64,000 bases of DNA from Dictyostelium discoideum. Its lineage: Eukaryota. Where the stretch lies: assembly GCA_000004695.1 (NCBI GenBank), contig CM000153.2, positions 2,304,001 to 2,368,000 of the forward strand, in the 5' to 3' direction. Below, one piece after another: positions 6,809 to 27,052 of this stretch. Below the pieces are notes generated by a model. It ran no database searches, was not told the origin of the DNA, and saw only the letters and a list, made by a program, of their open reading frames with translations. A program made the position numbers and the translations under genes. How positions within the stretch are numbered: the stretch's first letter is position 1; each line of letters opens with the position of its first letter.

Positions 6809-7511
6809 TCCTTTTTTTTTTTTTTTTTGTTTTAAATTTATTTTGTATATTTGTTTTCGAATTTTTTTATTTATTTGAAAAATAATTGTTTTTTTTTATT
6901 TTTTTTTATTTTTTTTACAACTATTTAATCTTCTTTTATAACAAAATTCAAGAGAGATATAATATTGTAGTTTTATTTAGTTGTGTGCTATATTCTTGTT
7001 TTTTTTTTTATTTTTTTTTTATTCTTTTAAAATTCTATAAAAATATACAAAAATGGTGATTGTTAATATTTAATACTAATTTTTTTTTTTTTTTTAAAAA
7101 AAAAAAATATAGAAAAGTGGTATAATTAATAAAAAAAAAAAACAACACACTAATTTTAAAAAAAATAAAATAAATAAAATAAAAAAAAAAACAAAAATAA
7201 AAATAAAAATATATAAAAAACAAAAAAAAAACAAGCTGTGGTGTGGCAAAATGATAATTTAAAAAAATATATTTGATTTTTCTTTGTATACAAAGATAGT
7301 GTTTATGTTTAGTGTGTAAAAAAACTTTTGTGAGGAAAATGAAAAAAAAAAAAAAAATATATACATACACAATTGTAATTGTCTCTATATTTCTATGTTT
7401 TCTGTAAATTTATATTATTAATTATAATCTTATGTGTGAGTAAACAATAGAGCTATAAATTTAAATTAAAAAAAAAATATATATATTTATTCTATATTAT
7501 AATTATTATTA

Positions 7512-10916: not shown

Positions 10917-11723
10917 CCATCAATAACTCAACAACAGCAACAACTACTACAACAACAGCAACAACAAATACAACTACAACTACAACAACAACAACAACAA
11001 CAATTACTTCAACAACAGCAACAACAAGAATTATTACAAACAAATACATATATTAGATCACCAATGTTAGAATTAAAAGGTCATTCTGGACCAGTTATTG
11101 GTGCAACATGGATATCAAGTAGTACGGTTGTGTCAGCAAGTTGGGATAATACAATAAGATGGTGGAATACAGAAAATGGTAAATTAATTTCAAGTGGTAA
11201 TGTTTGTGTTGATAAAGTTCATAGAGTTACAAACATTACATCAAATCCAAACTGTAATACACATTCAATCACTAGTAGTACTGATGGTATCATAAGAATA
11301 TGGGATTATCGTTCATCATCCTCTGGTTGTATTGATTCAATTCAAGGCCATCAAGAACCTGTAAATAGTGCAGTATTCACATCGGATGGCAATAATGTAG
11401 TCACTGGTGGAGAAGATCGTACTGTAAAAGTTTGGGATATTAGACAAACCAAAGCCTATAAAACCTCAATTCGTTGTCCATTTGGAATCAATAGGTTATC
11501 AGTTTCTCCAAATACAAATTCAATTGCAATACCTCAAGACGATGGAAGAATTTCGGTTTATGATATTTATGGTAATAGAAAAGGAAAAATGAGAGATCAA
11601 TACAAATATGGTCATAAACAAATGGCAACTTCAACTTCTTGGAGTTTTGATGATTCTGTAATTTTCTCTGCTGGTTTTGACAGAAAAGCAATTTGTTGGG
11701 CTAGTAATTCTTCAGTTAATTAA
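9169..11723 (+). CDS. WD40-repeat protein with N-rich and polyQ low-complexity inserts, two exons: join(9169..9361,9493..11723)
   Basis: WD repeat signatures: HTGTINSIRFHP, SGDKTIHIIKL, SASWDNTIRWWN, GGEDRTVKVWDI, plus a polyQ tract coded by (CAA)n at 10846..11040. ORF 9169..9381 (MFINKIPFLKRE..) ends at a GTAATA donor (9362). The acceptor tgtAG at 9491/9492 joins it in frame (phase 1) to the open frame upstream of the 9630 ORF (..LKQKVESLSNNNEILNN..TEPLTTIPQ). Confidence 0.7.
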
Positions 11724-11841: not shown

Positions 11842-14657
11842 TTAAAATGTACTATTTTTAATTTTTTCATAATCTAAATTTGCTTTTTCACGAAGTTCAT
11901 CAATATTCTTATCTTGTTCAGCATATTGGAGTACAAGATGACGACCATAAAAGTGAGAATTACCAAGTGCTTCCATTGCATTTTTAGCTTCTTCTTCTGT
12001 GAGGAATTCAACGAAACCAAAACCTCTATGACCTCCATTTGGTTTCTTTGGAATACGTACGGATTGAATTTCACCATAGGCAGTGAACAATTTTCTAATT
12101 TCTTTGATTGTTGATTCGAATGGAAGATTTTTAATAATGATTTTAGATGATGGTTTATTTGGTTGACCACCATTTGATTTAATAGATTGTTTACTGTTCT
12201 CTGGTAATTCTCTTCTTTTATTAATCTCTTGAACATTTGTTTCATTCTTGTCTGATAATTTCAATGAGATTTCATAACCATCAATTGAAGAACCATTCAA
12301 TTTCTTTATACATTCATATGCACCTTGTTTTGATGAAAATTCAATGAAACCGAAACCACATGGTAATCTTTCACTTGGATTCTTTGGATTAGCTTTAGTT
12401 GCAATATTTACATTAACATAATCCTTAAGTGATTTAAATTTACCAACGAGTGTTTCATTTGTAGTTTTCCAATTAAGATTTTTAATATAAACAAATTGAG
12501 TATTATTATCTGTACCTTTTTTAGTTGTTGTTGTTGTTGCTGCTGTTTTAGTTGTTGATTCAACTTCTTTTTTATCATTTGAACTATCTGATGATTTTTC
12601 AGATTTTTCAGATTTTTTAATTTCTTTTGGTGGAGCAGGTAATTTGAAAACACCTTCTGGTGCCCATTCAAGGTAAAGTGGGACATGGTGGAATTTTGAA
12701 TATGCTAAATTTTTAAAACCAACTTTAGCTTCATTTGGATGAATATATTCAATGAGTGCAATTGTACGAGCTGGTGAAAGTACAACACGAGAAAGTTCAC
12801 CAAATTTAGAGAATAATTCATGTAATTCATGTTCTTGAGTTTTAAATGGAATGTTTTTAACTAATAATACTGTGTTACTACGTTTACTACCTTTGTTACC
12901 AATATCTTGAATAATTACACCTTGATCCTCTAAAAACTTTTTAGTTTCATTAATTACATGAGTTTCCATTAATGTCATACGAACTGCTAAATCCATTTGA
13001 TTTGGATCTAATAATTGACCTTGAGTCATTTTATAACGTTCTGCTAATGAAGATACAATTGCATCACTTCTCATAAACAATGCATTCCAATTATGAGTTG
13101 AACCACTTGTTGTTTTTTGTTTTTGTTCTTTTTCAGCTTTAAATGATGATGATCCTCCTTCAGCACCATTATTATTATTATCTTTATTTTCAGAGAATTG
13201 TTTTGCTGGTGCGGCTTTACCTGGTAAAACATGAATTAATCTACCTTGGAAAACTTTACCATCCATGTCATTTAATGCTTGAACTGCATTCTCTGGAATT
13301 AAATATAAAATGAATGCAATACCTTTGGATTTCTTTGAATCATAATCAATTGGAATATGAATTTCAGAGATTTTACCAAATTTACTAAAAACTTTTTCTA
13401 AATCTTCTTCTTTTGTTGAATATGATAAATTTCTAACAAAAATTCTACCACTTTCACCAACATCTTCATCTTCTTTTGTATAATCATGTTCGAAATATTT
13501 AATTGGTTTAATTTTAGATTCATCATCATCACCATCATTATCATTATCTTTTTTATTTTTCTTTTTATCTTTTTTCTTTTCTTTTTTATTTTCTTTATTA
13601 TCATCAATTTTCATTTTATCTTTTTTATTTTCTTTATTATTAACATCCTCTTCCTCTGATTCTTCTTCATCTCTATAAACAATTGATTGATTCTTTTCAA
13701 TGATTTCATCATTATTTGATCTAAATTTACTTAACCAATCTAAATCTGAAACTGATGAATCATGTTTTTTCTTTTTTTCATTTATTATAGAATCTACATC
13801 ATCTTTTTTATTTTGTTTCTTTGGTGCTGTTGGCATATCTTCATATAAATCTTCTTCATCTGATGCGTCGGCATCTTCAAAAACTAATAAATCTTTATTT
13901 TTACCATGATCTAATTCAATCTTTTTTTTACCTGAAAATGGTAATTTACCATCCTCAACTTGATTATCATTTTCCTCTCCTTCTTCTCCTTCCTCTTCAC
14001 CTCTATTTATTTTACCAATTTCTTTATCATCATTTTCCCAAACTTTTCTATTTGCTTGAGGTGCAACTAAATTTAAAAATTCTTGATATTCAGGATCATT
14101 CTCTAATTCTGCATCTAATAAAGAATTTGTATGTGATTTCTTTTGTTTTTTATTTGATTGTTGTTCTAATTTATCTTGTTTTCTTTTTAATTCTTTTTTC
14201 TCTTTTTCTTTTTCCATTTCAGTTAATCTTTTATTTGATGATGAACCAATTGAATACTTTGACCATGGTCTATTTTCAGTTGTTTCACTTGCAACTGTTG
14301 CTGTTTCAACAACAATCTTTGATGTATCAATAAATGTACCATTCAATGAAAGTGCATTCTTTGCTGATTGTTCTGTTGAAAATCCAATAAATCCAAATAA
14401 TCTAGATTTACCATCCCTAGAAAAAAATAAAAATAAAAAAAATTAAAATTAATTATTAGTAAAACAATAATAATAATGATTATGGAAAAAAAAAAAAAAA
14501 AATATTCTGAAAATAAATAAAAAATAAAAAAATAAAATAATTACTTTTTGATAATTTTTGCATCTGTGACAGTACCAAATTTTTCGAAATGTTCTTTAAA
14601 ACGCTTATCTGTTAAATGTTTTGGTAATTGTTTTACACATATTCTTGTATTTGACAT
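11842..14657 (-). CDS. mrd1: Multiple-RRM nucleolar RNA-binding protein, Mrd1/RBM19 orthologue, two exons: complement(join(11842..14416,14545..14657))
   Basis: Five or six RRM-like segments and a C-terminus of the Mrd1/RBM19 type (KIIIKNLPFESTIKEIRKLFTAYGEIQSVRIPKK..GFGFVEFLTEEEAKNAMEAL), with a K/E/D-rich linker. The first RRM is split by an intron: exon 1 MSNTRICVKQLPKHLTDKRFKEHFEKFGTVTDAKIIK-K, donor AA|GTAATT at 14544, acceptor ctAG at 14418/14417, continuing KDGKSRLFGFIGFSTEQSAKNALSLNGTFIDTSK in frame. Confidence 0.8.
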
Positions 14658-16799: not shown

Positions 16800-17646
16800 T
16801 AATTAAAAAATTAAAAAAATAAAATAAAAGAATAAAATAAAAGAATAAAAAAAAAAAAAAAAAAAAAAAGAATAAAAAATATGATACAATAATAAAATAA
16901 TTATATAATTTCCTTTTATTTTTTTTTTTTTTGATCAAACCAAATAATATTTTTTATAGATCTCCATAAAATATTTAAATAAATAAATAAATTAATATTT
17001 ATTAATAATTATAATTAATTTTATTATTAATTTATTTTTTAAAATTTTAATAAAAAGGATAATATAATCATGGTTTTTAACAATCAGAATATATTCGAAA
17101 GAAATGATCAATTTTAAAATCAAACACACATAGTCCAAAAAAAGAAAAATAAAAAAATAATAAATACACTAAATTTAAACAAATTGAAATTTCAACCCGT
17201 TTCGCTTTTTATTTAATTTTTTAATTTCGGCCGAATTGCCGGATGCGGTTCTTTTATTTATTTATTTATTTTTTTTTTTTTTTTTTTTTTTTTCACAAAC
17301 CGAATATTTAATTAAATTTTTATTTTTTTTTTATTTTTTTTTTTTTGAACATTCGTTTTTTTTTTTTTTTTTTTATTTTTTTTTATTTTTTTTTATTTTT
17401 TTTTTTTTTGAAAAGGTTGTTGTATTTATTTAATTACATAAATATTTATAAATAATCTCGACTTTTTTAAAAAAAACATTATCACAAAGGTATGTGTTCA
17501 AAAATTTATTATTAGACCAACCCCCTTTAAAATAAGCATATCCACATTTAAAAAAAAAAACCCCTTTTTAAACTTCAACACGACATATCTGGTTTTTTAC
17601 ACTTTTTTTTTTTTTATATTTTTTTTTTTTTATATTTTTTTTTTTT

Positions 17647-17684
<38 letters not shown>

Positions 17685-18214
17685 ATTTTTTAATTGTATT
17701 ATTTTTTTAATTTTAATTTTATTATTTTTTTTTTTTTTAATTTGTTTTTTATTTTTTTTTTTTTTTAATTTAATTTAACCTTAAACCAAATTCCAGTTTT
17801 TTTATTTTGTTTTTTAAAATTTTATTTTTTTTAATTCCCAAGATACAGAAAAACAAAAGTATTTATTTATATCTTATTTTTTGCTTGGACCATAACGTAA
17901 ATATTGTATAAGCAATTCAATTTCAATTTCAATTTCATTCAAATAAAAATAATAAAAATAAAATAAAATAAAAATAAAAGAAATAATGACACCACACCCA
18001 CTTTTTTTTAATAAAATATAATTTTTTTTTTTTTTTTTATATAAAAATATATTTTTAACTATTCGAATTTTTTTTATATTACAATTACTATAATTTTATT
18101 TTATTTTATTTTATTTTATTTATTTTTTAAAATTTTATTTTAATTTTTTTTCTTTTTTTTTTTTTTATTTTTATTTTAATTTCTTTTGTATTCTTTTAAA
18201 ACCACATACTAACC

Positions 18215-18247
<33 letters not shown>

Positions 18248-18295
18248 TTTTATAGATTTTTAAATATTATATAATTATATAAATAAAATTTAAAA

Positions 18296-19334
18296 ATGGG
18301 TGATAGAATTAAAATTTTAACAGGTAATGCACATCGTGAATTAGCATCAGAAATTTCAGATGATTTAAATTTAGCATTGGGTAAAGCACATGTTGGTAAA
18401 TTTTCAAATGGTGAAACCTCAGTAATGATTAGTGAATCAATTCGTGATATGGATGTTTACATTATTCAACCAACTTGTAATCCAAATGTAAATGATAACC
18501 TTATGGAATTATTAATTATGGCAGATGCAATCAGAAGAGCTTCAGCTCATCGTATCACTGCCGTAATTCCATGTTTTGGTTATGCTAGACAAGATAAAAA
18601 AGATAAATCAAGAGCACCAATCACTGGTAAATTAGTTGCAAATTTAATTGAAACTGCTGGTATTGATAGAGTTATTACAATGGATTTACAGTAAGTCTTT
18701 ATTATTATTATTATTATTTTCGTAACATTAAAATATTTTAAATATTAATTTTATTATTATCATTATTATTTATAGTGCAAGTCAAATTCAAGGTTTTTTT
18801 AATATTCCAGTAGATAATTTATATGCTGAACCACAAATTATTAAATATATTAGAAAGTATATTCCAGGTGAAAAAGTTATTGTATCACCAGATGCTGGTG
18901 GTGTAAAACGTGCCAAATCAATCTCTGATAAATTGGATGCAGATTTAGCAATTATTCATAAGGAACGTAAGAAGGCAAATGAAGTCTCTGGTATGATTTT
19001 AGTTGGTGATGTAAAGGATAAGGTTGCATTGATCGTTGATGATATGGCCGATACTTGTGGTACTTTAGTATCCGCTTGTGAAATGTTAATTAGTAAAGGT
19101 GCTACTAAAGTTTACGCATTAGTAACCCATGGTGTTTTAAGTGGTGATGCTATTCAAAAATTAAATGAATCCTCTCTCACAGAATTAGTCATTACAAATA
19201 CAATTCCACATGCTGAAAAAGCCGCTAAATGTCCAAAGATTAAAACTATAAATATCGCTCATACTCTTTCTGAAGCAATTAGAAGAACTCATCATGGTGA
19301 ATCAATTTCTTCATTATTCTCTGATACAAAATAA
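18296..19334 (+). CDS. prs: Ribose-phosphate pyrophosphokinase (PRPP synthetase), two exons: join(18296..18690,18776..19334)
   Basis: Near-textbook PRPS sequence: [48 protein letters not shown]|ASQIQGFF (split by an 85-bp intron: donor CA|GTAAGT 18691, acceptor tatAG 18774/5), [28 protein letters not shown]. Confidence 0.9.
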
Positions 19335-19960
19335 TCAAAAAAAAAAAAAAAAAAAAAAACACAAACAAATAACAATTTATAATAATATTTTTTTTTTTTC
19401 AAATTGTTTATTTTTTTACTTTTTTTTACTTTTTTTTTTTTTTTTTTTTTTATACATGAAAGTGGATAAAAAAAAAAAATTAAATTAAAAATAACAATTT
19501 TATTTTCTAAAACATACATACATATAAAACAAAACAAAAAATAAACAAAATAAAAACACAAAATACTCTTCACTAAAAAAAAAAAAAAAAAAAAAAAAAA
19601 ATAATATTTGGCCAAACATAAATCTGGAAAATTACGAAAAAAAAAAAAAAAATAATCCCTTCAATTTTAAGTTTTATAAAATAATAAAAAAAAAAACAAA
19701 AGAAAAAAAGAATATGAATTTTCTGATTGGTTTCATACTTCAACATACACAAAAATTAAGTTTGGCCGATTCACATGGTTTTTTTTTTATTTGAAATAAT
19801 TTTTTATTTGGATATTTTTTTGATTGACTTTAAAAATAAGTTTTTTTTTTTTATTTTTTTTTTTTTTTTGATAACTGACCAGTACATAAATATCTGAAGA
19901 AATTTTGGATTTTTTTTCTTATTTTTTTTTATTTTTTTTTGTTGTTATCAAATTCAAAAA

Positions 19961-21047
19961 ATGAATATCAAATATATTATTTTAGGTTTATTATTATTTG
20001 TTGTTGCTTCAGCCACTGCAAAATATACCTGTGAATGTAATTTCTCACATGGTGAAACTCGTTTAATTGCTGTAAAAGAGTAAATTTAGTTAAAAAATTT
20101 TAAAAATAATCATTTTTGGGTGTCAATTATTTAAATTCTAATTTTTCTTAATATGTGTATTAGTAAATCTCATTGTATGGAAAGATGTAATTCCATTATT
20201 CAAGAAGTTTATACTATTCCATGTGATTTACAAACTTGCACTTGTAAATGTACAAATGGAACTATTTTCGGTTGTCAACCAACTCCAACAACAACATCAA
20301 CTACCTCAGCTTCAACAACAACTGGTAAAGCCTCATCATCTGGTCCATCAACAACCGGTAGAGCTTCATCATCAGGTCCATCAACAACTGGTAGAGCTTC
20401 ATCATCAGGTCCATCAACAACTGGTAGAGCTTCATCATCTGGTCCATCATCAACTGGTAAAGCTTCATCTTCAGGTCCATCATCAACTGGTAAAGCTTCA
20501 TCATCTGGTCCATCATCAACTGGTAAAACTTCATCTTCAAGTAAATATTAATTTTCCTTTGTTCAAAAATTCTAGTAGATTAATTTTATTCCTAAATTAA
20601 TATATAATTTTTATTTTTATTATAGGCACCCAAACTTCAGGTTCCCAAACCTCAGGTTCACAAACATCAGGTTCACAAACATCGGGTTCACAATCAGGAC
20701 AACAAACAGGTTCGCAATCAGGTTCACAATCAGGACAACAAACAAGTTCACAATCAGGTTCACAATCAGGACAACAATCAGGTTCACAATCAGGTACCCA
20801 AACCTCAGGTCAAACCTCAGGTCAAACTGGTGCCCAAACTGGTCAATCAACTGCTTCAAGTGGTAGCAGTGGAAGTAGTGGAAGCAGTGGAAGTAGTGGA
20901 AGTAGCGGTGGTAGTTCTGGAAGTGGTGGCAGTTCTGGAAGTGGTGGTGGTAGCGGTTCAGGTAGTGGCATGGCAGTTAAAGTTGATAAATGCTATGGTA
21001 CTTACTGTCCATGTAACAAAGAACTTTTAAGTGTTAGAGTATTATAA
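19961..21047 (+). CDS. Secreted Cys-capped Ser/Thr/Gly-rich tandem-repeat (mucin-like) protein, three exons: join(19961..20079,20164..20540,20626..21047)
   Basis: Exon 1: signal peptide [20 protein letters not shown] plus [19 protein letters not shown], donor GA|GTAAAT. Exon 2: Cys-rich [32 protein letters not shown], then seven tandem 11-aa repeats ([12 protein letters not shown], 33-bp DNA period 20330..20520), donor A|GTAAAT 20541. Exon 3 (no ATG, so absent from the ORF track): (TSGSQ)n/(SGSQSGQQ)n and (SGS)n, ending [22 protein letters not shown]. Both intron phases check out. Confidence 0.65.
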
Positions 21048-21136
21048 ATAAATTAAATTATCGATTAAATTTTATATTTGTAAAACTATTTTTTTTTTTT
21101 TTTTCTGATTATTAATTATTTCATTTAATTATTTAT

Positions 21137-21178
<42 letters not shown>

Positions 21179-21289
21179 CAACCCAAAATCAAAACACTTT
21201 TTAAATTATAAAATAAATTTATTTTATAATCAAATATTAAGTCAAAAAATGTTTAAAAAAGAATAATCAATACCATGGGTATTAAAAAA

Positions 21290-21710
21290 TTGCTTCATAT
21301 TAGTTCCTTATAATTTAGATCATTTCAGCTTCAAAAAGAGAAATTCTCAATTTTATGCCAGATTCATTTGGTTATCATAAAGGTCATATTTATTATTCAT
21401 TTGATGGTTTAATTAAAAAAATTTATGTTGGTCTGGTTATAGGAATTTCATAGAGTTTATTGGTAAAAGAGTTTGCAATGTAAAAATGAGTTGAAGAAAC
21501 ATCAAAATCTTTAATTGTAGTGTCATAGAATAATGCCCGATAACTAGAAGATTGATTAAATAATTCACCAACACCACATGAGAAAATATGATATTGTACC
21601 ATTTAAAGCGAAATTTGAAAAGTAGAATACATTTATCATTATTTTGATTTGTTCACATGTACCATTTCTCTTATTCCAACATTTGCTTTATCCATTGGTG
21701 TTGACGTTAT

Positions 21711-21715
<5 letters not shown>
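21290..21715 (-). pseudogene. Truncated, degenerate tandem copy of the downstream secreted-protein gene (22080..23024)
   Basis: 21296..21712 aligns base-for-base at about 85-90% identity with 22203..22552 of the intact gene (for example ..gtaaaagagtttgca..aaatgagttgaagaaacatcaaaatctttaattgtagtgtca..). It carries in-frame stops and lacks the 5-prime and 3-prime ends. Confidence 0.75.
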
Positions 21716-21763
<48 letters not shown>

Positions 21764-22079
21764 AAATATGATATTAAAATTTAATATACTTTTTAACAAA
21801 CAATTTTAAAAACATCATTTAATAATAAATTTAATATCACATTTTTTTAAATTAATATCATAAAATGATAAAAAAAAATAAAAAGGCAAATAAATAATAA
21901 AATTCTTATATATTATCTTTTTTTTTAGTTTCTATTATATTTTAATAAAATATATATTTTTTAATTATAACAAGTTTCATTTTTAAATACATTTTTTGTT
22001 TATTTTTTAATAATTTTTAATAATTCAAAAAAGAAACTTACAACTTTTATTAAAATTTAATTTATTATATTTTAATATT

Positions 22080-23024
22080 TTAATAACTTCCCGTGGTATC
22101 AAAGTCATAAATAAGTTCAGGTTTTGAATTTGAGTTTGGATCAACTGAAATTTTTTTAAGTGAATTTTTAAATGAATAATAAATATAACCATTATGATAA
22201 CCAAATGAATCAGGCATAAAATTGAGAATTTCTCTTTTTGGAGAATAATTTTTTAGACTGGGTAAAGGAATTTCAAAAAGTTTATTGGTAAAAGAGTTTG
22301 CATAGTATAAATGAGTTGAAGAAACATCAAAATCTTTAATTGTAGTGTCAGAGACTAATATTGGAGAACTTGCATAATGATTAAATAATTCACCAGTAGT
22401 GTTTGAGTAAATATTTGATTTTGTACCATTTAAAGCGAAATCTAAAAAGTAGAATACATTATTCATTATTCTGATTTGTTCACATGTACCAGTTTCTCTT
22501 ATTCCTACAGTTGCTTTATCCATTGATGTTGACGTTAATGGGAACACACCACGTTCATAAACACTACACATATAAATTAAATTATTTGTAGGATCATATG
22601 CGAATGAACCTGCATTTGCAACACTGAAATAATTTTTATATGCTGTATTTAAACTACTTGAACTAATCACTTTACCAAGTTCACGAGACGTTGTATTAAA
22701 AATTGTAGCTGATCTGTGGCCATCTGGTTGTAATGAATTATCACCAACTATGAAATCACCAGTGATAGGATTTCTCCAAAGTAAATTTATATAACCATCA
22801 GGTAAATTAAAAAATTTCCTCCATACAGATTTACTATGCATTGGAACTGAATATATAAATGGAGTTTCACCATTTCCAAGAAAAAGGCAATCAATTTGTT
22901 CATTAACTTTGTCCAATAAAATTCTTGAATATCTATTTGGATCAGAACAGATTTCTATTAGTGATAAACATTTAGTAGCCAATGATATTGTTATTAATAA
23001 TATTAAAATAATTTTTAATTTCAT
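22080..23024 (-). CDS. Secreted protein of unknown function (about 314 aa), single exon
   Basis: True ATG at 23024 (MKLKIILILLITISLATKCLSL..); the ORF-track start in the poly-lysine/A-tract is spurious. Hydrophobic signal peptide, multiple NxS/T sites, no recognisable catalytic motif. Has a partial paralogous pseudo-copy immediately upstream. Confidence 0.6.
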   Translation of the reverse strand: MKLKIILILLITISLATKCLSLIEICSDPNRYSRILLDKVNEQIDCLFLGNGETPFIYSVPMHSKSVWRKFFNLPDGYINLLWRNPITGDFIVGDNSLQPDGHRSATIFNTTSRELGKVISSSSLNTAYKNYFSVANAGSFAYDPTNNLIYMCSVYERGVFPLTSTSMDKATVGIRETGTCEQIRIMNNVFYFLDFALNGTKSNIYSNTTGELFNHYASSPILVSDTTIKDFDVSSTHLYYANSFTNKLFEIPLPSLKNYSPKREILNFMPDSFGYHNGYIYYSFKNSLKKISVDPNSNSKPELIYDFDTTGSY

Positions 23025-23898
23025 TTTTATAAAAAAAAAAAAAAAAAAAAAAAACAAATTATTATTGTTATTTTTTTTTTTTTTTTTTTTTTTACCCACC
23101 TTATTTATACTTTTTTTTTTTTAAACTTAAATTGTTTTTTTATATTTTATATATTTTTTATTTTTTATTTTCAAATAACAGTGTTGTAAATAAAAACAAT
23201 TCCTTTATTCTTTAGGGGTTTTACTTTTAAATGTATAGAATGCACATGACTGTGTTTCAAAATTTCTTCTTTCAGAGAACCAAAGAAACAAATAAGGATA
23301 TAATAATCCCATTTATATGTGGGTATGTGTTAAATCTGTACAGAGTAAAAAGTGTTTAGGAAATTGGTGTGTTTTTATTTTTTTTATTATTTTTTTTTTA
23401 TCTGTTTGAATTTTTTATTTTTTTTATTTTATTTTTTTATCTGTTTGAATTGTTTTTTTTTTTTGTATTTTTTTTTATTATTTTTATTTTTGTAAAGGGA
23501 CTTCCCATTTTACTTTTAATTTTTTTTTTTTTTCAACCATATTTTCTTTTTTTTTTTATTAAGATTTTTTTCAAAAAAAGTGAAAAAATCTTTTAAAACT
23601 CTTCAAAAAATATCTTTTTTTAATTTTTTTTTTCTGATCTACTTTTTCCACCTTAGTGTGCTGTTTTCATAGATGTTTTGTTTTGTGTTTTTTCAAATTT
23701 TAAAAAAGTAATTTTTTTTTTTTTTTTTTTATTTAAAAAAATATCTTAAATATTCGTTGTAATCAGAAAATAAAAATTTTAATAAAAAATAAAATAAAAA
23801 AATAAAATTAAAAATAAAATAAAATTTAAAAGGTTTTTTGATCACAAAAAAAAAAAAAAAAAAAAAAAAAATATTGTTTATATTTTTCTATTACTAAT

Positions 23899-24173
23899 AT
23901 GAGAGTTTTATTCATTTTATTTTTATTTTATTTTTACACATATACAGAAGCACAACAATATTATCCAATCGATCCAACAGGAAAATGTGAACAATATATT
24001 GGAGACTCTGTAATAACACCATGTAGTAAATATTTAAATAACCCTAGTATGTATTAAATTTCTAATCATAATAAATTTTAAAATTTAATTTTATCTAACA
24101 AATGTAATAATAATTATTATTATTATTATTATTTTTTTTTAAAATTATTATTATTTTTTGTTTTATCTTTAAT

Positions 24174-24247
<74 letters not shown>

Positions 24248-25520
24248 TTCAATATATGTTTCATCAACAGCAAATCAATCAACAGCAATGTTATCATTAA
24301 ATTTATATTTTTCATTATTAGGAGGTAGTTCAGCATCATGCCAAAATGCATATACTTTTGCCACGTTATGTTCAACAGTATGATTTATTATTTTCACTTT
24401 ATTTATAATCATTTTAAAATAATTTTTAACAATTTTAATTTTATTTTTTTTTACTTTTTAAATTAGTATTTACCAGAATGTGAAATTTTCATAGATAATA
24501 GTACAAATAAAGAGATTGCAATGCCAAAAAGAGTTTGTTTGGATACTTGTAATAGTGTTTCAAAAAATTGTCAAATTACAAGTTATTTTGATTGTAATCA
24601 ATTGGAACCAATTAGTAAATTACCTTTATTTCCAAAAGAATCATCAGATTATAATTTAACAACATATGGAGGAGAATTAAATTATAGATTAGATTGTTAT
24701 GATCCACCAAAATCAAATGAAACCACTGTAATTGGTTATTGCCCATTTCCATTAGTTTTTAGAAATAGAACAATTGTTGGAAAAGGAAGTGATTCACTTG
24801 ATAATAGTGAAAACTATGGATATACATATGTTAGTGAGGATAGTTATTGTACAATTCCATGTCCAGCACCAATTTTCTCAGAGAAACAATGGGATAATAT
24901 TTTCGATACAAGTGATGCAATTTCATTGGTTTCACTACTTTGTTCAGTTTACTTATTCATAACATATATGGTAATAAATCCAAAAAGAAATAAATATGAT
25001 TATTTCTTTAGTTTTTTCGTACTAAGTATTATTTTAATGTCGATAGCTGGTACAATTGGATTTTCAGTTGGTGGAACGAGAAAACTTCTCTGTCCAGAGA
25101 TAAATCGTAGAGGTGTATATACAGATCCAGCAGTTGCTGCAGCTGGTTGGATTTTTCAATTTGCAATTATAAATGCAATTCTATGGTTTTCAATCAATTC
25201 TTTTGAATTATGGTTCCAAATTAAATTTATAAAGAGAAAATTACATTTAATAAAGTTTTACATTCTTGCAGTTTTAGTAATTTCAATTGCACTATCAGTA
25301 CCACTTTCGGCTATAGGTGAGTTTAATGCTGGTTTGGGTAATTTTGTAGTTTGGATTGAATCTGGAAAATATCAAAATTGGTTTTTCTGGGGTCCCTTAG
25401 GTATAGTTTTAACAGTAGGTACAACTTTTATTGGTTTAGTTATTTGGGAAATTTATAAAGTATGTAAAATAATTTTTTTTTTTTTTCTTTTTAATTAGAT
25501 TGTTTCTTCAACAAATTCAA

Positions 25521-25562
<42 letters not shown>

Positions 25563-25842
25563 AGATTGTTTCTTCAACAAATAAAAGTGATTTTTTCAAA
25601 TTACAATTAAAACCTTTAATGAATATGTTGTTAATTTATCTTACATTTGTTTATTTATTTGGTTATAATTTTTATATTCATAATTCTTTAAATGGTTTCT
25701 ATGGTTCATCAGAAGAGTTTAAAAATTGTATAATTTCAACAGATGGTAAAGATTGCAGAATTCAGGGTCCTCCATATAGTTCAATTTTAATGTTTGTTTT
25801 TTGTCTTAGGTAATTATTTTAATTAATTTGTTATTATATATT

Positions 25843-25877
<35 letters not shown>

Positions 25878-26183
25878 TGTATTTATTAATTTATTTTTCA
25901 CTTTTTTATTAATATTAATAAACAAATAAACTATAGAATTTATGGAGTGTATTGCATTGCATTATATGGGTTTTCACCTAAAACTAGATCAATTTGGTCA
26001 AATTCTATTGTTTTCAATAATTCAATGGCAAATAAACTCAAAACTTTGTATATTAGCAGTGGAACTACCAAGGGAGGAACATCATCAACTGATATAAAAA
26101 TGTCAACAAATAATAATTCAAATATGGATAGTGGGGGTGGTAAAAGTAGTTCAATGGAACCAGATGAAATAATATTACGTTAA
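23899..26183 (+). CDS. fsl: Frizzled/Smoothened-like 7TM receptor (Fsl family), five exons: join(23899..24046,24247..24377,24467..25459,25565..25809,25937..26183)
   Basis: Signal peptide MRVLFILFLFYFYTYTEA. Frizzled-type cysteine-rich domain split over exons 1-3 (..GKCEQYIGDSVITPCSKYLNN|..SCQNAYTFATLCST|YLPECEIFIDNSTNKEIAMPKRVCLDTCNSVSKNCQ). Seven hydrophobic helices. KTRSIW (KTxxxW) motif just after the last helix, as in Frizzled. Donors GTATGT/GTATGA/GTATGT/GTAATT; every acceptor follows a poly(T) tract and ends ..aattAG. Confidence 0.75.
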
Positions 26184-26986
26184 AAAAAAAAAAAAAAAAG
26201 CAAAGATATATAAATATCTTTTTGTAAATTAATTAATATTCATTGTGTTTTAAATTATTTTAATATAAAACAAACATTTTTATGTATTAAAACTAATATT
26301 ATTTATTTTTATAAATATCAATATATATTTTTGGTTCTTTTAAAAAAAAAAAAGTTTTGTTTATTGGAAAAAAAATAAAAAAATAAAAAAAATAAAAAAA
26401 TAATTCCAACATTTGTCGTAATATAATTATGTAATAATTAAATTGTTACAATAAAATTATGTTTTATCAAGATATTAAATTAGATACAATCTCGCTCACA
26501 AACTAAAATAATTTATGTTTAAAAAATTAGACTTTTCTCACTGGTGGGAAAAAGCCACGTGGTGAGTTTTTAATGTCGATTGAAAAACTCATAAACATAA
26601 TTTTAAATCTCAAATATAAAAAGTAAAAATTTTCAACAATAAAAAACATGCATAATAAATTTTAGGATTATCGATAAAACATCAACTTATTATATATTTA
26701 TTTATTTAATTTTATTATATTTTTCTATTAAAAGATTCTTAACATAACATGAGCAATAATTTAGGCGAGTATTTTAATTATTTATTTATTTTTATATTAT
26801 TAATATTAAATTATTGTGTTAATGTTCAACAAACATTCCATAAATGATTTATAAATGGTTAAATCCAAAAAACTTAAATTTATTATAATTTTTACAAGCA
26901 AACAATTTTATTTTATTTTATTTTATTTTATTTTATTTTCTATTATTTTATTTTTTTTTATTTTTTAATTTTTTTTTTTTTTTTAG

Positions 26987-27052
26987 ATTTATTGGTTTGC
27001 ATTATTTCATTTTGAATATTAATAGAAAATGAAATAATGCAAACCAATAAAT
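26987..27052. repeat. Perfect 27-bp inverted repeat with a 12-nt loop; a diverged partial copy of one arm lies at ~27160..27185
   Basis: atttattggtttgcattatttcatttt (26987..27013) / gaatattaatag / aaaatgaaataatgcaaaccaataaat (27026..27052). ggtttgaattatttcattttcaaaa at ~27160 matches the left arm at about 22/25 positions. Confidence 0.85.

Follow-up and report, generated by a model that had tools for sequence, protein, structure and literature searches.

The window analyzed here is a 64,000-nt stretch of Dictyostelium discoideum DNA. Within it, a minus-strand gene, DDB_G0284675, is accompanied on its downstream (3′) side by a short, rearranged fragment of related sequence, which we call the relic. 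We refer to the live gene as copy 1 and to the further units of its tandem array as copies 2 and 3. The features are listed below in order along the gene strand, with assignments to copies 2 and 3 based on the comparisons that follow.

22080 to 23024, minus strand: copy 1, the intact gene DDB_G0284675, a single-exon ORF of 314 amino acids
21762 to 21794, minus strand: landmark in the copy 1 3′ flank, reading AAAAAGTATATTAAATTTTAATATCATATTTAA on the gene strand and directly preceding the homopolymer and the relic
21712 to 21761, no strand assigned: homopolymer of 50 A (50 T on the gene strand), where the 5′ end of the relic is cut short
21618 to 21709, minus strand: relic segment 1, about 92 nt (codons ~160 to 190), copy 1-like, with a −1 frameshift near 21665
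21434 to 21617, minus strand: relic segment 2 (codons ~191 to 252), copy 2-type and in the original orientation, with a −2 frameshift near 21590
21423 to 21602, minus strand: 59-codon ORF annotated as DDB_G0284673, the longest ORF left in the relic
21322 to 21433, plus strand: relic segment 3, assigned to the 3′-terminal ~37 codons of copy 2 and inverted without moving from its site; translation of the sense strand gives ASKREILNFMPDSFGYHKGHIYYSFDGLIKKIYV
21297 to 21323, minus strand: assigned to the copy 2 stop-codon region and the first ~25 nt of its 3′ flank, ATGATCTAAATTATAAGGAACTAATAT, in the original orientation
21268 to 21296, minus strand: assigned to copy 3, of which it contains the four C-terminal codons (E-A-I-F), the TAA stop and a first part of the 3′ flank, and continuing into the shared downstream intergenic region (21040 to 21267)

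The live gene and its array

The copy 1 protein is XP_638469.1 (UniProt Q54PA6) by exact sequence look-up. Its N-terminus, MKLKIILILLITISLATKCLS, is hydrophobic and signal-like and is conserved in most of the aligned full-length family members. In an AF2 model of moderate confidence (pLDDT 75.3, pTM 0.78), residues 2 to 19 form a lone helix that is followed by 24 strands. A Foldseek search with this model returned 814 PDB matches at E ≤ 1e-3, the best of which were WD40/YWTD propellers at a TM of 0.45–0.56 and ~10% identity. We predict that copy 1 adopts a beta-propeller fold, a set of repeated four-stranded antiparallel blades around an axis, and that its family consists of lineage-specific secreted proteins. 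An hmmscan of the copy 1 protein against current Pfam-A found no family at E ≤ 1. UniProt names Q54PA6 after DUF5050, a label that Pfam scans did not reproduce, as none of the 10 family members scanned matched DUF5050 at E ≤ 10. An HMM search of 1.84 billion representatives recovered the same Dictyostelium family and one distant EGF-like protein of D. firmibasis (E 1e-15); the remaining matches were at noise level, such as an Acinetobacter phage tail protein, and nothing in the search pointed to a wider family or to horizontal transfer. A literature search with the gene IDs DDB_G0284675 and DDB_G0284673 found no mention of either.

Copy 1 carries an intact ORF in 8 of the 8 Dictyostelium genomes examined and is the sole copy that is intact in all of them. 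Pairs of copy 1 orthologues have a dN/dS of 0.41–0.55 (0.4–0.55 with wider rounding), against 0.8–1.0 between copy 1 and copy 2. Judged by these ratios and by its retention, copy 1 is the constrained member of the array, persisting while its duplicates are erased. The eight syntenic loci have the same order, namely a PRPP synthetase gene, a Ser/Gly-rich gene, the array and a frizzled-like gene, and hold one to three copies, with most of the extra copies disabled. In sister isolates the array is built of full units, in each of which ~450 nt of upstream region (promoter) precede the CDS and a 3′ flank follows it. A full-length copy 2 with its own promoter occupies the syntenic position in two diverged D. 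discoideum isolates, FIW and FIR, and is intact in FIW only. Both isolates also have a short relic, R, between copy 1 and copy 2, with a divergence of ~20% from copy 2. The same landmark and a T-run precede R (FIW, L001 ~11105–11166; FIR, L002 ~7150–7217). Copy 3 is disabled or deleted in every one of the eight genomes.

In the family tree, each copy groups with its orthologues in other species and not with the other copies of its own genome, with bootstrap support of 100% for copy 2, 100% for copy 3 (with which the second copy of FIY groups) and 84% for copy 1 from AX4, FIW, FIR and FIY; in FIZ and the outgroup species, the presence of one copy may reflect either loss or primary absence of the others (support 52–59%). 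A search for relics on the downstream side of the lone gene in FIZ, D. citrinum, D. dimigraforme and D. firmibasis gave only short inverted matches (E 1e-4 to 1e-5), which we took as noise because they were no better than spurious AT-rich matches elsewhere in the same loci. Four gene models from the new Dictyostelium assemblies, ACTFIR_010636, ACTFIR_010637, ACTFIW_007165 and ACTFIY_012194, appear to be disabled copies that were rescued by artificial introns or late starts.

Composition of the relic

A first-pass annotation had described 21296 to 21712 as a truncated copy of the neighboring gene, in the same orientation and upstream of it, and had set identity below about 60% as grounds for rejecting the relationship. 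A pairwise blastn comparison put identity well above that floor, in two blocks. The direct block pairs 21433–21709 with 22258–22537 (242/280, 86%, E 2e-93), and the second pairs 21329–21433 with 22139–22243 in reverse complement only (92/105, 88%, E 2e-34). The similarity is genuine, exceeding chance by a wide margin, but both orientation and ends had been misdescribed. Only the right-hand ~277 nt have the orientation of the gene. The stretch from 21329 to 21433 is inverted, with amino acids 261–294 falling on the plus strand in tblastn and the two arms listed as a 105-nt inverted repeat (I1, 21329–21433 and 22139–22243) with 705 nt between them. Positions 21296 to 21328 have no homology to the neighboring gene and match the copy 2 stop and 3′ flank, plus the tail of copy 3. 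The fragment is upstream in plus-strand coordinates alone, as the gene lies on the minus strand and the fragment is 3′ of it. Both of its ends are missing when it is compared with the neighbor, whereas relative to what is probably its true parent, the 294-aa copy 2, only the 5′ codons 1–159 are absent. The interruption by stop codons was correct in effect, and its source is the pair of frameshifts, −1 near 21665 and −2 near 21590. The inversion, the copy 1-like mosaic segment, the third-copy remnant and the annotation of part of the relic as DDB_G0284673 had not been mentioned.

Over segments 2 and 3, its 3′ 289 nt, the relic shows 93.4% identity to FIW copy 2 versus 84.8% to AX4 copy 1, and its matches to the intact FIW copy 2 are 89–94% identical. 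The relic forms a clade with the FIW and FIR copies 2 at 100% bootstrap, and 32 of the 43 diagnostic sites in its copy 2-type part have the copy 2 state. Its dS from FIW copy 2 is 0.105, which compares with 0.088 between AX4 and FIW copy 1 over the same region. Given this clade and a dS at orthologue level, the relic is probably what remains of the older full-length tandem paralogue, copy 2, and not a fresh partial duplicate of DDB_G0284675. The view that it arose by local segmental duplication of the intact neighbor, followed by decay, finds no support in the same two observations.

Segment 1 has a different affinity, with 91.9% identity to AX4 copy 1 versus 77.8% to FIW copy 2. It shows the copy 1 state at 13/13 fixed diagnostic sites between the two copies, against 11/43 beyond the breakpoint, which a maximum chi-squared test placed between 21618 and 21617 (permutation p < 1e-4; Fisher p 1.3e-6). 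A local burst of substitution is an unlikely source of this mosaic, because identity between copies 1 and 2 is uniform (79%) along the FIW genes. A single unequal crossover was also considered and rejected, as the intact copy 1 would not have survived a crossover of such polarity. The segment is most simply read as a gene-conversion tract whose donor would be copy 1, ~0.8 kb away in cis and in direct orientation; it may instead reflect a chimeric origin. With ~6 private changes in 93 nt and no settled placement within the copy 1 clade (support 39–56%), a conversion would have to be old, and may lie on either side of the AX4/FIW split. For conversion in the reverse direction, into the live gene, there was no signal, with one of five AX4-specific sites matching the relic.

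The junctions of the relic can be followed against FIW. Between the homopolymer region and copy 2 codon 160, ~1.15 kb that is present in FIW (L001 11167–12325) is absent, leaving the relic without a promoter and without codons 1–159 of copy 2. Along the remainder, the FIW coordinates run 12337–12601 directly, 12723–12612 inverted and 12725–12754 directly again. Segment 3 matches FIW copy 2 (L001 12612–12723) at 105 of 112 positions (94%), reversed and with both flanks collinear. The stop and flank segment that follows matches L001 12725–12754 at 26/30 positions and L002 8744–8772 at 25/29. At the inversion junctions ~10 nt were lost (TGGTTTTAAT in FIW), 2 nt of filler are present and there is only 2 nt of microhomology; microhomology lengths in this region are approximate, since the ancestral junction states were approximated from genomes ~7–11% diverged. 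As no inverted repeats were found at the breakpoints beyond these 2 nt, recombination between inverted repeats (NAHR) is an unlikely route to the inversion. The copy 3 remnant matches L001 14260–14288 at 28 of 29 positions (E 1.6e-9) and meets the copy 2 flank at a GAA/AGAAC microhomology, with the interval L001 12755–14259, ~1.5 kb, missing. An inverted relic in FIY (L003 12461–12507, E 3e-9) was considered as an ancient common source of segment 3 and rejected, as the AX4 block is copy 2-specific over 112 nt at 94% with collinear flanks, and the diagnostic sites of the FIY relic are mixed. An independent assembly (L004, GCA_054883475.1) shows the same arrangement and differs from the reference by 0 mismatches over the relic, which argues that the inversion is not an assembly artefact; one homopolymer within 21200 to 22100 differs in length between it and the reference.

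Origin of the relic

We consider it likely that 21268–21709 is a non-functional composite relic of a tandem array (copies 1, 2 and 3, and R) that was ancestral in the D. discoideum clade; the lack of function is inferred from structure. The relic shows homology to a functional paralogue, disabling lesions and a tandem origin at the DNA level, and is in these respects an ordinary unprocessed pseudogene, if one with unusually legible scars. We propose that in the NC4 lineage (AX4/AX2), in one order or another, copy 2 took up a copy 1-derived tract by interlocus gene conversion; that a ~1.15-kb deletion ending at the long T-run took out R together with the promoter and 5′ half of copy 2; that the 3′ end of copy 2 was flipped through two breaks or a template switch; and that copy 3 was lost to a microhomology-mediated deletion of ~1.5 kb, which spared only its last four codons and stop.

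Other histories would account for parts of this structure. The overall identity of 86–88% to the neighbor, and the first ~92 nt of the relic, which are closest to AX4 copy 1 (91.9%), would fit a recent partial tandem duplication of DDB_G0284675 in AX4 that was born truncated and has been decaying since. We regard this as very improbable, as the other ~300 nt carry 32 derived copy 2 states and fall in the FIW/FIR copy 2 clade at 100% bootstrap, the relic ends in a copy 2-specific early stop and copy 2 3′ flank instead of the copy 1 C-terminus, and a full-length copy 2 with its own promoter stands at the syntenic position in the sister isolates. Least credible of all is an origin of the fragment as a processed pseudogene (retrocopy), or a misassembly behind the inversion. 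The fragment does abut a 50-nt homopolymer, and AT-rich, homopolymer-laden DNA misassembles readily. However, on the gene strand the run is a 5′ poly(T) and not a 3′ poly(A) tail, the relic keeps its genomic 3′ flank and sits within a tandem array whose units carry promoters, and the independent assembly agrees with the reference at every position of the relic.

A less remote, though still unlikely, history makes the AX4 relic the orthologue of R. R would then be an older fourth member of the array, possibly a copy 1/copy 2 chimera; AX4 would have lost copies 2 and 3 in one ~3-kb deletion, and R would have been shortened further in FIW and FIR. On the left the two have the same context, with the landmark and T-run and then the relic, and one candidate derived state (TTTGAT) is common to the relic and R. 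The two parts of the relic are also similarly diverged from their apparent parents (8% and 6.6%), which would fit a single chimeric origin. Against this, a three-taxon comparison counted 2 unique changes in the relic, 16 in R and 6 in copy 2, within an overlap that discriminates R from copy 2 over 89 nt and in an argument that relies on a molecular clock. Pairing the relic with R as sisters, with copy 2 as the outgroup, violates the clock (p 0.0013), whereas pairing the relic with copy 2 does not (p 0.29), and 2 versus 16 changes would be implausible for neutral orthologous pseudogenes. The 3′ flank of the relic is closer to that of copy 2 than to that of R, and the divergence between the relic and copy 2 (6.6%, dS 0.105) is no higher than orthologue level, as opposed to ~20% between R and copy 2. 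Together this favors descent of the relic body from copy 2.

In the AX4 reference, part of the relic is listed as protein-coding under the name DDB_G0284673 (XP_638468.1, Q54PA7, by exact look-up), and an ATG-initiated ORF of 59 codons does exist there. The ORF begins at an out-of-frame ATG, reenters the copy 2 frame after the −2 frameshift and ends just past the inversion junction. It is very probably spurious, an accidental ORF over a frameshifted pseudogene and an inversion junction. That it is a genuine 59-aa protein gene, as annotated, is hardly believable given its makeup: the first 5 codons are out of the parent frame, the remainder would amount to ~1.5 propeller blades, the ORF terminates by running over the inversion junction, and no promoter-bearing upstream unit is left. 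Moreover, the ORF is impossible in FIW and FIR, where the region lies within a longer gene or pseudogene, and the annotation of an AX2-like assembly has no gene call at this position, in line with the empty literature search.

The relic and the 3′ coding region of the live gene also face each other as an inverted repeat on one strand, with I1 arms that are 88% complementary over 105 nt around a 705-nt loop. The minus strand from 22260 to 21310 folds with an MFE of −206.5 versus −140.9 for shuffled sequences (z −10.3). If transcription of the live gene reads through the AT-rich 3′ flank, a near-perfect hairpin of ~100 bp could form and give rise to endo-siRNAs that tune DDB_G0284675. We speculate on this only as a long shot; were it true, an amoebozoan would have a hairpin regulator derived from a pseudogene, comparable to those of mouse oocytes. 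There, pseudogene inverted repeats reportedly yield hairpin endo-siRNAs against the parent gene, as Tam et al. and Watanabe et al. are said to have described in 2008. The Dictyostelium locus resembles these sources in its inverted repeat (105 nt, 88%) between relic and live gene on the same strand, and differs in being a structural possibility read from sequence.

Comparison with known systems

The general idea of the first-pass annotation, that the fragment is a duplicate in decay and that gene birth and death are at work in a lineage-specific family of proteins predicted to be secreted, was borne out by the one to three copies found across 8 loci. Orthologous clades extend across species, and copy-number variation and pseudogenes are found among close relatives. 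Except for a leftover that is annotated as a 59-residue protein gene, the locus is ordinary gene-family birth and death and opens no long-standing question. Its practical value lies mainly in annotation, where DDB_G0284673 (Q54PA7) should become a pseudogene fragment in the reference. The difference in copy number between the laboratory strains (AX4/AX2) and wild D. discoideum isolates affects knock-out and expression studies of the family. The locus also offers a compact worked example of turnover in a small lineage-specific array within or just above the species level, in which duplicates would be erased through microhomology deletions, homopolymer-associated breakpoints, micro-inversions and ectopic conversion.

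Tandem arrays with unprocessed pseudogenes are familiar from the MHC, immunoglobulin, olfactory-receptor and globin clusters, for which Nei and Rooney are said to have framed the concept of birth and death. The array described here shares with such clusters the duplication of units together with their promoter, a single conserved member beside variously decayed copies, copy-specific clades and differences in copy number. Unlike clusters of the MHC or globin type, it is tiny (three or four units), restricted to the genus and encodes a protein without an assigned function, and its AX4 relic would pack a conversion tract, two deletions, two frameshifts and a micro-inversion into 440 nt. Interlocus gene conversion between a gene and a neighboring pseudogene occurs at CYP21A2/CYP21A1P and among globin pseudogenes. 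The relic is like the CYP21A2/CYP21A1P pair in its sharp mosaic boundary and in a putative donor ~0.8 kb off in the same orientation; here, however, conversion would have run only from gene to pseudogene, and the tract is old, with ~6–8% of later divergence.

A parallel within the same species is the fast-evolving tgr family, which in AX4 comprises 38 genes and 26 pseudogenes (Holland et al. 2025, PMC12745789). That family is a lineage-specific expansion with truncated homologues, and AX4 differs in it from the diverged isolates CR116C, OT3A, M4B and S6B (PMC12745789). The copy 1 family is unrelated to tgr, as it lacks TIG repeats and is predicted to form a beta-propeller, and it has no known recognition role. 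Unlike at tgr, no hypermutable hotspot is shown here, and the live copy 1 has a dN/dS below 1. In the same genomes, the two families undergo the same kind of turnover.

Composition of the relic and state of the array

The stretch beside DDB_G0284675 (copy 1) lies in eukaryotic, AT-rich DNA with many homopolymers, and the first-pass annotation had read it as a duplicate in the same orientation over 21296-21712. Using window 21200-21800 as a blastn query against 22000-23150, we recovered two blocks, listed below, whose scores show that the similarity to the gene is real and not low-complexity. The orientation call holds for 21433-21709; the left quarter, however, is inverted, which the annotation missed, and 21296-21328 has no counterpart in DDB_G0284675. 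Repeat analysis agrees, returning direct families D7, D11 and D13 together with inverted repeat I1 (105 nt, 88%, arms 705 nt apart). As claimed, the fragment is interrupted by stop codons: in tblastn, residues 163-254 align to the minus strand, broken by stops and frameshifts, and residues 261-294 align to the plus strand. No further copy of the gene was found elsewhere in the 64-kb window.

Features of the relic and copy 1
22080-23024, minus: DDB_G0284675 (copy 1), intact ORF, 314 aa; XP_638469.1, UniProt Q54PA6, D. discoideum AX4 by exact look-up
21433-21709 vs 22258-22537, same orientation: direct block, 242/280 (86%), E 2e-93, blastn
21329-21433 vs 22243-22139, reverse orientation: inverted block, 92/105 (88%), E 2e-34, blastn
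21423-21602, minus: DDB_G0284673 (XP_638468.1, Q54PA7 by exact look-up), the relic's longest ORF, 59 codons
near 21665: -1 frameshift, a 1-nt deletion in the relic
near 21590: -2 frameshift, a 2-nt deletion in the relic
21712-21761: A50 run, occupying the relic's 5′ junction

The relic has 0 mismatches in an independent assembly (GCA_054883475.1), which shows that the inversion is no assembly error. Over 21 kb that assembly is 99.6% identical to the window, with 1 mismatch and otherwise only homopolymer-length indels, including one run in 21200-22100 seen as a single alignment gap; given its near-identity to AX4, it probably represents lab strain AX2-214 of PMC12745789.

Syntenic 21-kb loci were fetched from seven other genomes, drawing on the long-read assemblies of Holland et al. 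2025 (PMC12745789).

State of the array at the syntenic loci (organism names in quotes as given in the NCBI records)
FIW ('D. discoideum'), L001: copy 1 intact, 314 aa; copy 2 intact, 294 aa; copy 3 5′-truncated
FIR ('D. discoideum'), L002: copy 1 intact; copy 2 frameshifted, with two stops in frame; copy 3 carrying a single premature stop that an annotated intron conceals
FIY ('D. cf. discoideum'), L003: copy 1 and a second copy with multiple frameshifts
FIZ ('D. cf. discoideum'), L005: single copy, intact
D. citrinum, L006: single copy, intact
D. dimigraforme, L007: single copy, intact
D. firmibasis, L008: single copy, intact

In these loci the array is bordered by genes for PRPP synthetase and a Ser/Gly/Thr-repeat protein and, on its other side, by the gene for a 58x-aa membrane protein that matches Frizzled weakly. 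The window flanks are 88-90% identical to L001-L003. Compared over window 17000-27000, FIR and FIW (ACTFIR and ACTFIW, both 'Dictyostelium discoideum') are ~10-12% different from AX4 in flanking DNA, with a copy-1 dS of ~0.14. Holland et al. class two isolates as D. discoideum that have diverged yet can still mate, and another two as possible cryptic species; they describe CR116C and OT3A as genetically diverged from AX4 and still mating-compatible, in line with the ACTFIR/ACTFIW divergence. Within the nominal species, copy number at the locus thus varies.

The duplicated unit takes in ~450 nt upstream of the CDS (window 23461-22129 vs L001 11409-12733, 78.5%). The copy-1 promoter region thus belongs to it (window 23200-23461 vs L001 11409-11700 and L003 11235-11285 / 11505-11560) and carries a conserved motif block, CACACCAATTTCC..CACAGATTTAAACACA..AAATGG. 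Two such upstream blocks are kept in FIY with only one CDS downstream, so one of them appears to be the orphaned promoter of a copy 2 that was deleted. The product of the neighboring plus-strand gene at window 19961-21047 has a Cys-rich N-terminal domain and then long Ser/Gly/Thr/Gln repeats, whose coding sequence consists of 9-, 12- and 15-nt tandem units (D3, D5, D10); the annotated lengths of its orthologues in the eight genomes cover 232-439 aa, a range that suggests rapid repeat-length change.

Parentage of the relic

The annotation attributed the fragment to a single local duplication of its neighbor. The pattern is older and richer than that. The direct block matches FIW copy 2 at 236/265 (89%) and the inverted block at 105/112 (94%), again in inverted orientation, and the 30 nt that follow (window 21323-21294) align to the stop and 3′ flank of copy 2 in direct orientation at 26/30. 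Copy-2 coordinates therefore run direct, inverted, direct, which indicates an inversion in place. We restored the relic by re-inverting the block and aligned it with 13 other copies (417 columns). In the neighbor-joining tree it clusters with FIW and FIR copy 2 at 100% bootstrap, the FIY second copy groups with FIW and FIR copy 3 at 100%, and the copy-1 clade of AX4, FIW, FIR and FIY receives 84%, with the three outgroup species falling outside. Since the synonymous divergence of the relic from FIW copy 2 (dS 0.105, codons 192-294) equals the level among copy-1 orthologues (0.088 in the same codon region, 0.138 at full length), the relic looks like the orthologue of a pre-existing paralogue and not a new copy of its neighbor.

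A further short relic, R, lies between copy 1 and copy 2 in FIW (L001 11167-11262) and FIR (L002 7218-7313). It holds the final ~24 codons (GNHKGNIYYSFDSSIKMIYVCP*) of a copy-2-like gene together with the stop and some flanking sequence, and it implies an ancestral array of at least four units. R follows directly on the landmark sequence and T-run that also stand before the AX4 relic, so by position the relic could be the orthologue of R. Over 89 alignable sites, however, unique changes number 2 in the relic, 16 in R and 6 in copy 2, which makes the branches of the relic and R as sister pseudogenes grossly unequal (binomial p 0.0013), whereas pairing the relic with copy 2 is compatible with a clock (p 0.29); the flank of the AX4 relic also fits that of copy 2 better. 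Together these points argue that the relic is probably orthologous to copy 2 rather than to R, on few sites and with a clock assumed. Whichever of the two is the orthologue, the sequence falls in the copy-2 clade.

Mosaicism, lesions and junctions

The relic is a mosaic. Its first 100 columns are 91.9% identical to AX4 copy 1 vs 77.8% to FIW copy 2, and the other 289 columns are 84.8% vs 93.4%. Of 56 diagnostic sites, at which the copy-1 and copy-2 clades are each fixed for a different base, the first 13/13 are copy-1-like, followed by 32/43 that are copy-2-like; almost all of the 11 exceptions are ancestral states. By maximum chi-square, the breakpoint falls between window 21618 and 21617 (permutation p<1e-4, Fisher p 1.3e-6). 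A local burst of change in FIW copy 2 is unlikely to have produced this pattern because FIW copies 1 and 2 are a uniform 79% identical along the region. The simplest reading is interlocus gene conversion in the AX4 lineage, with a tract passing from copy 1 into copy 2 and its 5′ extent then being lost by deletion. The tract is not recent, with about six private changes in 93 nt and a weakly supported placement within the copy-1 clade. We looked for reverse conversion into the live copy 1 and found no evidence of it.

In the copy-2 frame the relic spans codons 160-294 of 294. At the inversion junction ~10 nt are lost (TGGTTTTAAT in FIW), with two filler bases and 2 nt of microhomology. The 5′ end lacks about 1.15 kb relative to FIW L001 11167-12325, an interval holding R, the copy-2 promoter and codons 1-159. 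At the 3′ end, ~25 nt of copy-2 flank are joined to GAAGCAATTTTTTAATACCCATGGTATTG. At 28/29 (E 1.6e-9) this sequence matches the end of FIW copy 3, namely its last four codons, stop and 3′ flank; copy 3 was therefore once present in the AX4 lineage, and ~1.5 kb (L001 12755-14259) is missing, with GAA/AGAAC microhomology at the bounds.

Very long complementary homopolymers, T38 (21141-21178) and the A50 run, flank the relic as an inverted pair (I12/I17). Deletion breakpoints of AX4 and likewise of FIW/FIR fall at the gene-strand T-run, a coincidence that hints at a fragile site. In FIY a separate relic (L003 12461-12530) lies downstream of the copy-3-type pseudogene and is made of two adjacent, separately inverted pieces whose reverse complements are HNGYIYYSHNDLDKKI and PNSKP, directly before the shared AATACCC...GGTATTGATTATTC flank. 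Set beside the AX4 block, these pieces indicate that micro-inversion of the same 3′ coding region has arisen independently in two lineages. Curiously, the GYHNGYIYYS coding region recurs as inverted matches of 40-43 nt (77-80%) downstream of the single-copy genes of D. citrinum (L006 11610-11648) and D. dimigraforme (L007 11119-11161); at E 1e-4 to 1e-5 these are no better than spurious AT-rich hits elsewhere and are probably noise.

The inverted block is antisense to live-gene 22139-22243, on the same strand and 705 nt downstream. A hypothetical read-through RNA (22260-21310) would form a ~100-bp stem (MFE -206.5 kcal/mol vs shuffles -140.9 +/- 6.3, z -10.3), a trivial consequence of the inverted repeat with no bearing on transcription, and we consider a regulatory hairpin role very improbable.

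The maintained gene and its annotated remnants

A word-indexed search of 5.8 billion proteins returned 12 relatives of DDB_G0284675, all from Dictyostelium and all at the syntenic locus; apart from noise, the one addition from an exhaustive profile search over 1.84 billion representatives was a distant EGF-like protein of D. firmibasis (E 1e-15). Current Pfam-A gave no family match for the protein at E<=1 or for nine relatives at E<=10, and the 'DUF5050 domain-containing' label that UniProt/UniRef attach to Q54PA6, which we could not reproduce with it, seems to date from an older or less strict match. The AlphaFold2 model (10-sequence alignment; mean pLDDT 75, pTM 0.78) predicts an N-terminal helix at residues 2-19, a signal-like hydrophobic segment, followed by 24 beta strands, and Foldseek against the PDB returned hundreds of WD40 and YWTD beta-propellers (TM 0.45-0.56, ~10% identity). 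The family is best described as a genus-restricted six-bladed-type beta-propeller, whose members are probably secreted.

Copy-1 orthologues have dN/dS of 0.41-0.55 at every depth compared, vs 0.8-1.0 between copy 1 and copy 2, and copy 2 differs between FIW and FIR by 18 non-synonymous and 2 synonymous changes. With the lesion catalogue, these values indicate one maintained gene and drifting duplicates, which bears out the earlier suggestion of gene-family birth and death. The observation in that first reading is partly borne out; its interpretation is correct in spirit, wrong in mechanism.

The ORF of DDB_G0284673 opens at an ATG that is out of frame, returns to the copy-2 frame beyond the -2 frameshift and stops just past the inversion junction. 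The AX2-like annotation has no gene call at this position and no searchable paper mentions the gene; it is best regarded as a pseudogene fragment. Four other models resemble pseudogenes, ACTFIR_010637 (L002 7867-8750), ACTFIR_010636 (L002 10001-10945), ACTFIW_007165 (L001 13507-14274) and ACTFIY_012194 (L003 11637-12439). Among them are frameshifts, in-frame stops or 5′ truncation, and the models seem to get round these lesions through annotated introns or late start codons; protein P0009, for example, lacks exactly the stretch holding a premature TAA.

Overall, this is an ordinary relic of an unprocessed pseudogene within a small tandem array specific to the genus, and it is notable only for the number of mutational processes legible in 440 nt and for its annotation as a gene in the reference genome.
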